Below, one piece after another: positions 9,903 to 10,484 of a stretch of 64,000 nucleotides of DNA. Positions within the stretch are counted from its first letter, which is position 1; each line of letters starts with the position of its first letter. The notes below the pieces were generated by a model. It ran no database searches and was not told the origin of the DNA. It was given only the letters and a program-made list of their open reading frames with translations. The position numbers and the translations under genes are program-made. The stretch comes from a bacterium (GTDB lineage Bacteria > UBA9089 > JASEIO01): assembly GCA_030017475.1 (NCBI GenBank), contig JASEIO010000001.1:13495-77494 (forward strand). The letters are read 5' to 3'.

Positions 9903-10484
9903 ATGATTGAAGGTGTAGAGCGTGTACTATATAGGATTGAAGAAATAAAGAAAAGATTTGGGGATTACTTTCCTTACATTAACACAGAACATAAAACACA
10001 GAAGAAGGAATTTAAGGATGTATTGGAAGAGGTTGAGAATACCCAACACTCAACATCCAACACCCAGTACCCAAAACCCAGTATCCAAGACCAAGAGGGA
10101 GTCGATGCGCTAATTGATAAATATAGTGAGAAATATGGGGTGGATAGGGCATTGATTAATGCAGTGATTAAGGTGGAGTCAAATTTCAATCCTCGAGCTA
10201 TTTCACCGAAGGGTGCTTGTGGGCTTATGCAACTTATGCCCAAAACTGCTAAACTTCTTGGAGTAGATGACCCATTTTCACCAGCTCAGAATATAGAGGG
10301 GGGAGTTAGGTATCTTCGGTCTTTATTAGATGAATTCGGTGGAGATATATCTTTGGCGCTTGCTGCATACAATGCAGGTCCGACCTTAGTTAAAAGGCTG
10401 GGTAGGATTCCAAAAATCTTTGAGACCGAGAACTATGTTCAAAGGGTAATGAGATATTATAAATCACAAGCTTCAAGGGGTTAG
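9903..10484 (+). CDS. soluble lytic transglycosylase (SLT-domain) protein, putative flagellar rod-associated peptidoglycan hydrolase
   Basis: 193 aa. SLT family motifs ES..NP, GLMQLMP..A, AYNAG in the C-terminal 120 aa. The N-terminal 70 aa is hydrophilic with no signal peptide. Located between fliJ and fliK. Confidence 0.8.
   Translation: MIEGVERVLYRIEEIKKRFGDYFPYINTEHKTQKKEFKDVLEEVENTQHSTSNTQYPKPSIQDQEGVDALIDKYSEKYGVDRALINAVIKVESNFNPRAISPKGACGLMQLMPKTAKLLGVDDPFSPAQNIEGGVRYLRSLLDEFGGDISLALAAYNAGPTLVKRLGRIPKIFETENYVQRVMRYYKSQASRG

Follow-up and report, generated by a model that had tools for sequence, protein, structure and literature searches.

A CwlQ-related SLT lytic transglycosylase without a signal peptide, encoded in an early flagellar operon and probably exported by the flagellum

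The protein encoded downstream of fliJ in the 64-kb stretch of DNA analysed here (the window) is a member of a large family of signal-less SLT lytic transglycosylases, which are embedded in the flagellar gene clusters of several phyla. Judging by gene order and by features of the N-terminus that are conserved throughout the family, such a protein is probably exported via the flagellum's own secretion channel. The reading we favour, with a probability of roughly 0.7, is that the enzyme leaves the cell through the flagellar type III system, docking on FlhB by means of its FKDVL motif, and opens the wall around the rod and hook.

Results

The SLT gene occupies positions 9903-10484 of the plus strand and forms a complete ORF with an ATG start, 193 codons and a stop (ORF table, Pfam). 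An identical protein (P0001) carries the NCBI annotation "lytic transglycosylase domain-containing protein". Directly upstream of the ATG, a purine-rich ribosome-binding region, AGAGGAAGAAAGG, can be read from the sequence at 9890-9902 of the same strand. An in-frame TGA is found at 9840-9842, 60 nt 5' of the start, and neither ATG, GTG nor TTG occurs in frame between it and position 9903. A longer N-terminus with a hidden signal peptide is therefore excluded. The 20 intervening codons would yield a charged, non-hydrophobic peptide, and homologues in an alignment of 30 family sequences (A1) share the start at the conserved MxEG residues. The maximum Kyte-Doolittle mean is 0.92 over 19 residues for the whole protein and 0.54 over 10 residues within positions 1-70. 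Both values are far below those of a signal-peptide core or a transmembrane helix, and the same is true of all 30 aligned relatives. By this hydropathy criterion, which is the one applied to the protein and its relatives throughout, there is no Sec or Tat signal and no membrane helix; the same scan found no twin-arginine pair followed by a hydrophobic stretch. That the start codon was mis-set and the true protein bears a Sec or Tat signal is thus vanishingly improbable and, in effect, already refuted by the sequence.

Residues 61-193 (10083-10481, plus strand) form a compact family-1 lytic transglycosylase domain, as indicated by Pfam, AlphaFold2 and Foldseek. PF01464 (SLT, GH23) matches residues 70-178 at E=1.2e-31, with 109.2 bits against a cut-off of 21.3. 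The AlphaFold2 model of residues 61-192 has a lysozyme-like all-helical fold (pLDDT >96), which Foldseek pairs with Slt, Slt70, MltF, MltC and MltE at a probability of 1.00 and an rmsd of 2.2-2.7 A over about 140 columns. The motifs typical of the domain are all present, namely E92-S93...N95-P96, G107-LMQLMP and A155-YNAG. E92-S93 (codons GAG TCA, 10176-10181, plus strand) is invariant across the 30 relatives in A1. Chain residue 456 of Slt70 corresponds to query residue 70, and the alignment runs gap-free up to residue 92, placing E92 on the catalytic E478 of Slt70; E92 is accordingly the predicted catalytic glutamate. In an earlier note on this DNA, the 193-residue ORF, the lack of a Sec signal or transmembrane helix and the motifs ES..NP, GLMQLMP and AYNAG had been described just as we find them. 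The same note had named a profile search for PF01464 as a check, and a Sec/Tat signal on a corrected start or the absence of the catalytic Glu as grounds for abandoning its view; the profile matches, no such signal appears and the glutamate is in place.

The upstream neighbour of the SLT gene is fliJ (9433-9891, plus strand; Pfam FliJ, TIGR02473), whose stop codon lies at 9889-9891. The gap between the two genes is 11 nt, and we therefore conclude that they are co-transcribed and tightly coupled. Only 1 nt past the SLT stop, a TTG codon starts a flbB/MotE-like gene (10486-11055, plus strand) encoding an N-terminal membrane helix and an MgtE_N domain (PF03448; NF047368 collar_FlbB, 119.5 bits against a cut-off of 110). 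It is followed by the hook-length control gene fliK (11052-11753, plus strand; PF02120 Flg_hook). Thus, of the placement "between fliJ and fliK" given previously, the upstream half stands, but the flbB/MotE-like gene intervenes before fliK. The operon runs flgB...fliJ-SLT-flbB-fliK-flgD-flgE...flhB-flhA, with motA and motB farther along. The best candidate for a promoter is located immediately 5' of flgB, and no terminator-like site was found on the plus strand between flgB and flgD. The export-gate component FlhB is encoded at 25972-27111 (plus strand; PF01312, E=1e-121), and its C-terminal domain is, by analogy with PMC8983047, the putative docking site for FKDVL. As for the window's FlhA, its nearest named homologues come from MAGs at 60-70% identity, followed by Nitrospirota, Hydrogenedentota and Bacillota at 56-60%.

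We examined 22 loci with the SLT gene or a relative, counting the window, and in 20 of them the context is flagellar. Three arrangements recur: fliJ followed by SLT (L001, L002/L003, L004, L006, L009, L021 and L088), SLT followed by flgF-flgG(-flgA-flgH-flgI-flgJ) (L005, L008, L011, L013, L016, L020, L022, L042 and L090), and SLT followed by fliE-fliF (L028, L047 and L089). Among the matches listed, signal-less flagellar SLT proteins occur in Synergistota, Selenomonadales, Gastranaerophilales and Fimbriimonadales; this spread describes a sample of at least 600 stretches in a scan of genome contigs and is not a census. Unlike CwlQ, the relatives with a named source come mostly from double-membraned lineages, namely Synergistota, Negativicutes, Melainabacteria and Armatimonadota. 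Synteny is not universal, as a family member from Leptospira (L086) lies outside any flagellar cluster. A clearly signal-like N-terminus was seen in only 1 of 108 short representatives (10-residue Kyte-Doolittle mean of 3.19). When proteins of the full-length class were set against other close SLT homologues, a clear hydrophobic signal-like N-terminus was present in 0/37 of the former and 43/83 of the latter, the 83 comprising SLT-domain-only matches as well as proteins that lack a signal but have a variant N-terminus. Outside the class, the nearest SLT paralogues mostly have classical signal peptides. Our literature search for previous accounts of an SLT gene in the fliJ-fliK interval returned only general mentions.

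The N-terminal region of the protein consists of two unlike parts. Residues 1-20 (9903-9962, plus strand) are predicted to form an amphipathic helix (residues 3-20 in the AlphaFold2 model, pLDDT ~72) with the family motif MxEGxxxVLxRIxEIxxRF, in which hydrophobic residues show a heptad-like spacing, R11 is invariant and I15 is kept in 29 of the 30 sequences. The extreme N-terminus, with the A1 consensus M-x-E-G-[VIL]-x-x-V-L, contributes several residues that are small and non-polar (I2, G4, V5, V8, L9). Residues 21-60 (9963-10082, plus strand) are a low-complexity, poorly conserved and predicted-disordered linker (pLDDT <50 at residues 21-36 and 46-55). Within it lies FKDVL, an F-x-x-x-hydrophobic motif at residues 37-41 (10011-10025, plus strand). 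While the surrounding linker is variable, the F is found in 29/29 non-gap sequences of A1 and the +4 position is L, I, M or Y in 30/30; across the relatives, the motif is located at residues 28-56. F-x-x-x-hydrophobic motifs also occur at residues 31-47 of several early flagellar proteins of the window: FliE (FSEVL), FliK (FSEIL), FlgD (FLKLL), FlgE (FEDLL) and FlgB (FEKEL).

Early flagellar type III substrates have a two-part export signal, composed of N-terminal hydrophobic residues and an F-x-x-x-hydrophobic gate-recognition motif by which they dock on FlhB; one criterion for such a substrate is that residues of a small, non-polar kind occur among its ~10 N-terminal positions (PMC8983047). 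The N-terminal layout of the SLT family matches that of this signal, and we propose that residues 1-20 may be its N-terminal part and/or a docking helix. An F-x-x-x-hydrophobic motif is short and frequent by chance in any single sequence, and its function might be a different one, for instance the binding of a partner; the weight we give it comes from its invariance across the family and from nothing else. The first 30 residues, R11 and I15 among them, match no known export signal and do not align with the CwlQ orthologues considered below. Part of the N-terminus therefore seems to have a role that known export signals do not explain.

Beyond the bare SLT fold, the family is homologous, as judged by profile comparison, to the CwlQ orthologues of the Bacillaceae. 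We compared A1 with a CwlQ-type alignment (A2) of Bacillaceae proteins encoded at the yjbJ position, including P0365, whose neighbourhood is yjbH-yjbI-[SLT]-yjbK-yjbL-yjbM-ppnK-yjbO-prpE. We take A2 to represent the CwlQ (yjbJ) orthologues on the strength of this gene neighbourhood, with a Bacillus orthologue standing in for the B. subtilis CwlQ sequence. The hhalign comparison gave E=2e-77 over 160 columns, running from the F-x-x-x-L motif through the C-terminus. The F column of A2 is invariant as well and is paired with that of A1, whereas the first ~30 residues do not align, being of the "LLQLQALQ" type in the Bacillaceae and of the "VLxRIxEIxxRF" type in the SLT family. The N-terminal helices of the two groups are different. 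CwlQ of B. subtilis lacks a Sec or Tat signal; its secretion is FliF-dependent and is blocked by deletion of residues 2-35, and the mutant still builds flagella, swarming being its sole defect. Neither CwlQ nor the SLT protein has a Sec/Tat signal, and the two are built alike, from a non-catalytic N-terminal portion through a linker to a C-terminal SLT domain that bears the catalytic Glu. The linker is much shorter in the SLT protein (E92 versus E148 in CwlQ). The genes differ in setting. The cwlQ gene stands alone outside the fla/che operon and depends on SigD, the late flagellar sigma factor, while the SLT gene sits between fliJ and flbB among early genes, inside the flgB...flgE operon and with no terminator-like site nearby.

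Discussion

How might a signal-less enzyme reach the cell wall? According to our scenario, the SLT protein would be made together with the early flagellar proteins from a single long operon, to which the genes for the export gate belong as well. The segment F37-K-D-V-L41 in the disordered N-terminal region would dock on the cytoplasmic domain of FlhB, and the hydrophobic extreme N-terminus (I2, G4, V5, V8, L9), located ~30 residues upstream of the motif, would then engage the export gate. The unfolded chain would travel through the channel of the nascent rod and refold in the wall compartment. There, the enzyme would cut the glycan strands of peptidoglycan using Glu92 and locally open the wall around the growing rod and hook, possibly also for the adjacent collar and stator parts. 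Export through the flagellar type III system, docking on FlhB by FKDVL and the exact assembly step served are elements of this scenario that we infer. The role in rod passage may be accessory, because the hydrolase activity of FlgJ is not strictly required in Salmonella.

Secretion by the flagellar apparatus had already been suggested in the earlier note, with FlgJ as the model. Indirect support for it now comes from the signal-less family, the flagellar synteny, the N-terminal layout and the homology to CwlQ. As for the model, the picture of a signal-less stand-alone flagellar enzyme stands, but the direct precedent is CwlQ and not FlgJ, and the idea that the flagellum exports an enzyme of this kind is already published. 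FlgJ of Salmonella and other beta/gamma-proteobacteria, which combines a rod cap with a GH73 domain, resembles the SLT protein in being signal-less, in cleaving peptidoglycan and in being encoded among flagellar genes; FlgJ is exported as an early type III substrate, as the SLT protein presumably is too. The catalytic families differ, since FlgJ is a GH73 hydrolase and our protein an SLT/GH23 lytic transglycosylase, in which Pfam detected SLT-type domains only and no GH73 domain. Dedicated flagellar SLT enzymes that work alongside a single-domain FlgJ are SltF of Rhodobacter (Cereibacter) sphaeroides and BB0259/LTaseBb of Borrelia burgdorferi (PMC8517470). Unlike the SLT protein, both use Sec signals, and the lipoprotein signal of BB0259 is needed for its function (PMC8517470). 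BB0259 is also far larger, with 717 aa and an extra domain of 530 residues against 193 aa. The best NCBIfam match of our protein is nevertheless the BB0259 model, NF047373. We rejected membership in that family, as the score of 84.6 bits is far under the cut-off of 234, only the SLT part is covered (model positions 551-652 of 705) and our protein lacks a signal peptide.

Several other explanations have to be weighed against export for wall opening at the rod. The enzyme might be exported by the flagellum and yet serve the motor, remodelling peptidoglycan round an FlbB-type collar and the MotB stator anchor, so that its loss would impair rotation or swarming and not assembly. The SLT gene abuts a flbB gene that scores over its model's cut-off, motA and motB belong to the same operon, and the CwlQ mutant is flagellated and defective only in swarming; lytic transglycosylase mutants of Helicobacter pylori are likewise flagellated but non-motile. 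However, many relatives are located not beside flbB or motAB but directly upstream of flgF-flgG-flgA-flgH-flgI and a single-domain flgJ (L005, L090), and this placement before genes for the distal rod and the P/L rings suggests a function at the rod stage. We consider the motor explanation unlikely, albeit the strongest of the competitors. Considerably less probable is that the protein is a minimal replacement for FlgJ, its N-terminal helix capping or binding the rod tip as a scaffold and its SLT domain taking the place of the glucosaminidase. The conserved amphipathic helix with its heptad-like spacing would suit such a function, no FlgJ was found among the scanned ORFs of the window, and a Gemmatimonadales locus (L040) with a true fusion of a Rod-binding domain to SLT demonstrates that such fusions exist. 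Yet the Rod-binding cap domain of FlgJ comprises ~150 residues, while the N-terminal region here has only ~60, mostly predicted to be disordered. Pfam gave no match to the Rod-binding domain (PF10135) at E<=0.01, and hhalign of the SLT family against the single-domain FlgJ from L005 returned a probability of 0.3%; neither comparison supports the notion that the N-terminus is a reduced Rod-binding domain. Moreover, a separate single-domain flgJ is present in the same cluster of some relatives (L005), and the window covers 64 kb of a genome in which flgJ may lie elsewhere.

Marginally less probable again, to our mind, is that the flagellum does not export the protein at all, which would remain in the cytoplasm or leave it through lysis or some other non-classical pathway, its location within the operon reflecting no more than co-regulation. 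It is true that export of this subfamily is inferred, that signal-less SLT domains are also known from phage tail proteins and that the best PDB sequence match is a tape-measure protein. Against this, the substrate of SLT enzymes is extracytoplasmic, secretion of the homologue CwlQ depends on FliF, and the family-wide division into flagellar members without signals and non-flagellar paralogues with them would be hard to explain. The neighbourhood contains no phage genes, and a phage origin of the SLT gene, which the match to the tape-measure SLT domain might bring to mind, was rejected in view of the purely flagellar context.

How flagella pass the wall in bacteria lacking a two-domain FlgJ has so far received only a partial answer. 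To our knowledge, the dedicated flagellar enzymes SltF and BB0259 take the Sec route, and CwlQ is the only lytic transglycosylase known to be secreted by the flagellum. CwlQ, in turn, can be dispensed with during flagellar assembly, and the wall of its bacterium is thick and porous. The window adds a CwlQ relative that is firmly built into an anaerobe's early flagellar operon, together with a large signal-less family whose genes adjoin fliJ or rod genes and which, among the matches listed, extends over Synergistota, Negativicutes, Melainabacteria, Armatimonadota and others. The advance is incremental. Besides the published concept, a 2026 survey of ancestral flagellar genes counts "Transglycosylase" as a broadly distributed flagellar gene family (bioRxiv 10.64898/2026.06.11.731707), and a putative lytic transglycosylase heads the F1 flagellar operon of Clostridioides difficile (PMC10889297). 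Both sources record a transglycosylase gene as a widespread part of flagellar gene clusters. Their relevant passages do not mention how the transglycosylase would be exported, nor an N-terminal motif or a definition of a subfamily, and their family definitions may differ from ours.

It is tempting to go further, in a direction that we regard as possible but rather doubtful. The F motif and the hydrophobic N-terminus might together be a genuine FlhB-docking signal, and signal-less SLT proteins a widespread, possibly ancestral group of non-structural early type III substrates. A small exported SLT enzyme whose gene adjoins fliJ or rod genes would then have been the original means of crossing the wall, from which the FlgJ-GH73 fusions, SltF and BB0259 with their Sec dependence, and CwlQ, relocated and brought under SigD, were derived later; the helix containing R11 and I15, conserved separately, would provide a new means of docking a partner at the rod tip or cap. 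Apart from such speculation, the invariant F-x-x-x-hydrophobic motif is a concrete candidate for the export signal of an enzyme, rather than of a structural subunit, and hints at which residues of CwlQ to mutate.

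The lytic transglycosylase gene and its product

The SLT gene (9903-10484, + strand) comprises an ATG start, 193 codons and a TAG stop, and is a real ORF, as the earlier note had stated. A purine-rich ribosome-binding stretch precedes its start, the fliJ stop codon (9889-9891, +) lies 11 nt 5' of its ATG, and a gap of 1 nt separates its end from the following gene, which starts with TTG. The gene had also been placed between fliJ and fliK, which holds on the fliJ side only: a flbB/MotE-like gene (10486-11055, +) intervenes, and fliK is one gene further. The intervening gene scored 119.5 against the cut-off of 110 of the NCBIfam FlbB equivalog, and its product has a membrane helix at the N-terminus as well as an MgtE_N domain. 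FlbB is the collar protein of the spirochaete periplasmic flagellum.

Residues 70-178 of the 193-aa protein matched Pfam SLT (PF01464; E=1.2e-31), and the motifs quoted in the earlier note (E92-S93, GLMQLMP and AYNAG) are indeed there. Its catalytic Glu of the ES motif also stands: the phmmer alignment with E. coli Slt70 (1qsa) is free of gaps from residue 456 of the Slt70 chain and residue 70 of the query onwards, so that E92 falls on the catalytic E478. In an AlphaFold2 model built with 30 relatives as input, the SLT domain spans residues 61-192 (pLDDT >96) and is preceded by a helix at residues 3-20 (pLDDT ~72) and then a low-confidence linker. According to Foldseek, this domain resembles Slt, Slt70, MltF, MltC and MltE.

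The protein clearly lacks a conventional secretion signal, and so do all 30 aligned relatives, as judged by hydropathy. In the window protein, the top Kyte-Doolittle means were 0.92 over 19 residues in the whole protein and 0.54 over 10 residues within residues 1-70, bearing out the earlier claim that there is no Sec signal or TM helix. It also contains no twin-arginine motif with a hydrophobic stretch. A mis-set start codon hiding a signal peptide was excluded, since a TGA stands in frame at 9840-9842 and none of the codons ATG, GTG and TTG follows it before 9903; the N-terminus thus could not be extended to a signal peptide.

Two kinds of close homologues

A homologue search against 5.8 billion proteins returned one identical protein from an NCBI MAG, as well as relatives of two kinds: proteins of 167-232 aa matching over the full length and those matching the SLT domain only. 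Members of the full-length class are composed of a helix, a variable linker and the SLT domain, in this order. The helix carries the motif MxEGxxxVLxRIxEIxxRF, with R11 invariant and I15 in 29/30; within the linker, F37 is the one invariant position (29/29), and the residue at +4 from it is L/I/M/Y in 30/30. An N-terminus clearly of the signal-peptide type was found in 0/37 proteins of this class and in 43 of the 83 close homologues outside it; the rest of these, without a signal, mostly bear variants of the same hydrophobic-x-R-hydrophobic-x-x-I/L-E helix. When 1.84 billion representatives were searched exhaustively with a profile, 137,317 SLT proteins came up; 108 of the top 150 are at most 270 aa long, and a single one of these 108 has a clear signal-like hydrophobic N-terminus (10-residue KD 3.19). 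By these counts, close SLT homologues are largely split into those with a classical signal peptide and signal-less ones with the above N-terminal motif.

Other N-termini were met as well. In three Anaerolineae MAGs (L010, L027 and L070, about 3700-4400), SLT genes occupy the same fliI-fliJ-SLT position, and the N-terminus of their products differs, being more hydrophobic-helical (e.g., MIDTSFNNNMQLMMLELLMKMIQQQG) and without the R11/I15 helix motif. P0272 and P0125, from Lachnospiraceae and related taxa, are 400-440 aa proteins in which the SLT domain occurs twice in tandem; their N-terminus is hydrophilic, rich in Asn/Ser/Thr and devoid of a signal peptide. Both are among the top matches of the CwlQ-type profile.

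A proposed route of export

Early flagellar substrates of Salmonella carry a two-part signal: small non-polar residues at the very N-terminus (2-SIAV-5 in FlgD) and a gate-recognition motif (36-FLTLL-40 in FlgD), which docks on the FlhB C-domain; at least 19 residues are needed between the two, and export is efficient from about 24-30 (PMC8983047). The window protein shows this layout, having I2, G4, V5, V8 and L9 followed by F37KDVL41, and the layout is conserved in its subfamily. The second motif recurs in the same position range in the window's own FliE (F34SEVL), FliK (F31SEIL), FlgD (F34LKLL), FlgE (F47EDLL) and FlgB (F47EKEL). Such a match to the early substrates induces us to propose an FlhB-docking export route. 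The enzyme would dock on FlhB via FKDVL, thread unfolded through the export gate and then the nascent rod, and refold beyond the membrane, where E92 would cut glycan strands locally. We infer the docking, the export and the assembly step served by the protein. The published export signal leaves the invariant R11 and I15, in the first helix, unaccounted for; these residues may mark a partner-binding element.

Gene neighbourhoods, CwlQ and the possible role

Genes for signal-less family members are located directly 3' of fliJ in L001, L002/L003 (Synergistetes MAG), L004 (Fimbriimonadales), L006, L009 (Synergistaceae), L021 (Selenomonadales) and L088, usually with flbB-fliK-flgD-flgE next. Others lie directly 5' of flgF-flgG (L005, L008, L011, L013, L016, L022 from Gastranaerophilales, L020, L042 and L090), where flgA-flgH-flgI and a single-domain flgJ come after in several cases, or 5' of fliE-fliF (L028, L047 and L089). 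Among the matches listed in a genome scan, flagellar genes were found within 4 kb in 11 of the 12 loci whose match starts at query residues 1-4, the lone exception being a Leptospira locus; of the 68 loci matching the SLT domain alone, only 7 had flagellar neighbours. In the sample formed by the window together with every signal-less member inspected, 20/22 loci are flagellar. Within the flagellar operon of L001 (4.9-Mb contig, 1511-4039), fliH comes straight after fliF and no intervening fliG was detected, and in L089 the fliG position is held by a 316-aa protein without Pfam matches.

Among the representatives, the N-terminal subtype LLQLQALQ...F-x-x-x-L is that of Bacillaceae. The gene for P0365, from a Bacillus genome, is flanked on one side by CYTH, UPF0738, RelA_SpoT, NAD-kinase, pseudouridine-synthase and Metallophos domain genes and on the other by globin, DsbA-like, YizD and PepF domain genes. 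We take this neighbourhood to be the yjbH-yjbI-yjbJ-yjbK-yjbL-yjbM-ppnKA-yjbO-prpE region of B. subtilis, in which yjbJ is cwlQ; our comparison with CwlQ was made through Bacillaceae orthologues tied to it in this way. The profile-profile alignment between the window's subfamily and the Bacillaceae subtype (E=2e-77, 160 columns) starts at the F-x-x-x-L motif, leaving the first ~30 residues unaligned, and an invariant F-x-x-x-hydrophobic motif is common to both groups.

The region bearing this motif was described as poorly conserved in the CwlQ paper (2021), where CwlQ was reported to combine an SLT domain with one whose function is unknown, without a Sec/Tat signal. There, cwlQ was SigD-dependent and the protein reached the supernatant in a FliF-dependent manner; removing residues 2-35 abolished secretion, removing 36-63 lowered it, and CwlQ was required for swarming, not for flagella building. 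A signal-less SLT enzyme secreted by the flagellum is, therefore, an already published concept. In addition, a June 2026 preprint has 'Transglycosylase' among flagellar gene families widespread in bacteria (bioRxiv 10.64898/2026.06.11.731707), and a putative lytic transglycosylase is annotated as the first gene of the F1 flagellar operon in C. difficile (PMC10889297). SltF and BB0259, the known dedicated flagellar transglycosylases, carry Sec signals (PMC8517470), unlike the window protein. Our additions are modest: the embedding in the early operon, the occurrence in several phyla, the conserved N-terminal helix, and the invariant motif linking the subfamily with CwlQ orthologues.

Could the protein simply be cytoplasmic or released by lysis? 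This is unlikely, because close homologues are split into signal-less and signal-bearing ones and because of the CwlQ data. It is plausible, on the other hand, that the enzyme remodels the wall for the collar or stators and not for rod passage, as its neighbours include flbB and motAB and such a role fits the CwlQ phenotype; however, many relatives adjoin distal-rod and ring genes, which points to the rod stage. Sequence comparison gave no support to the protein as a FlgJ-like cap.

Two relatives deserve separate comment. L040 (Gemmatimonadales MAG, 3527-4393) encodes a 288-aa protein whose N-terminal part resembles the FlgJ Rod-binding domain, judging from ...DMEAIFLRILLDSMQK... read by eye, fused to SLT; it would be a FlgJ with a lytic transglycosylase in place of the glucosaminidase. 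The family member of a Leptospira sp. MAG (L086, 3968-4603), with helix VFRRMGEIE and F motif FEEMM, lies outside a flagellar cluster, next to histidine kinase and methylmalonyl-CoA mutase genes. It might offer a tractable spirochaete example for testing; another spirochaete, Borrelia, relies on BB0259, which is Sec-dependent.

The flagellar operon and other genes of the window

From its start, the operon reads flgB, flgC, fliE, fliF, fliG, fliH, fliI, fliJ and SLT, then the flbB/MotE-like gene, fliK, flgD, flgE, flbD, motA, motB, fliL, fliM, fliN/Y and fliO, and further a Maf-like gene, fliP, fliR, flhB, flhA, flhF, flhG, a sigma-28-type factor gene and fapA. By consensus matches only, the top promoter-like site is directly 5' of flgB, and no plus-strand terminator-like site was seen from flgB to flgD. 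flgJ, flgH and flgI were not found within the 64-kb window and may be elsewhere in the genome. The nearest homologues of FlhA come from unclassified MAGs (60-70% identity).

Directly 5' of flgB are genes for a xerC-like recombinase, hslV and hslU (274-3158, +), arranged like codV-clpQ-clpY ahead of the B. subtilis fla/che operon; in Borrelia, hslVU also precedes flgB. The hook protein gene flgE (12576-17060, +) encodes 1494 aa, 3-4x the normal length, and has a repetitive Gly/Val/Ile-rich insert of ~1000 residues between the Pfam-recognised D1 and D2/C-terminal segments. Between fliO and fliP, within the export-gate gene run, lies a gene for a 610-aa Maf/MptE-like protein (22047-23879, +), of a family of putative flagellin glycosyltransferases. 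A Wood-Ljungdahl gene cluster (53740-61682, +), with formate-THF ligase, RACo, FolD, CdhD-like and pterin-binding methyltransferase genes, suggests an acetogen-like anaerobe. Finally, the product of the gene at 51532-53733 (+) is a STAND-type NTPase of 733 aa (NB-ARC / ATPase_2) that bears a long array of TPR repeats.
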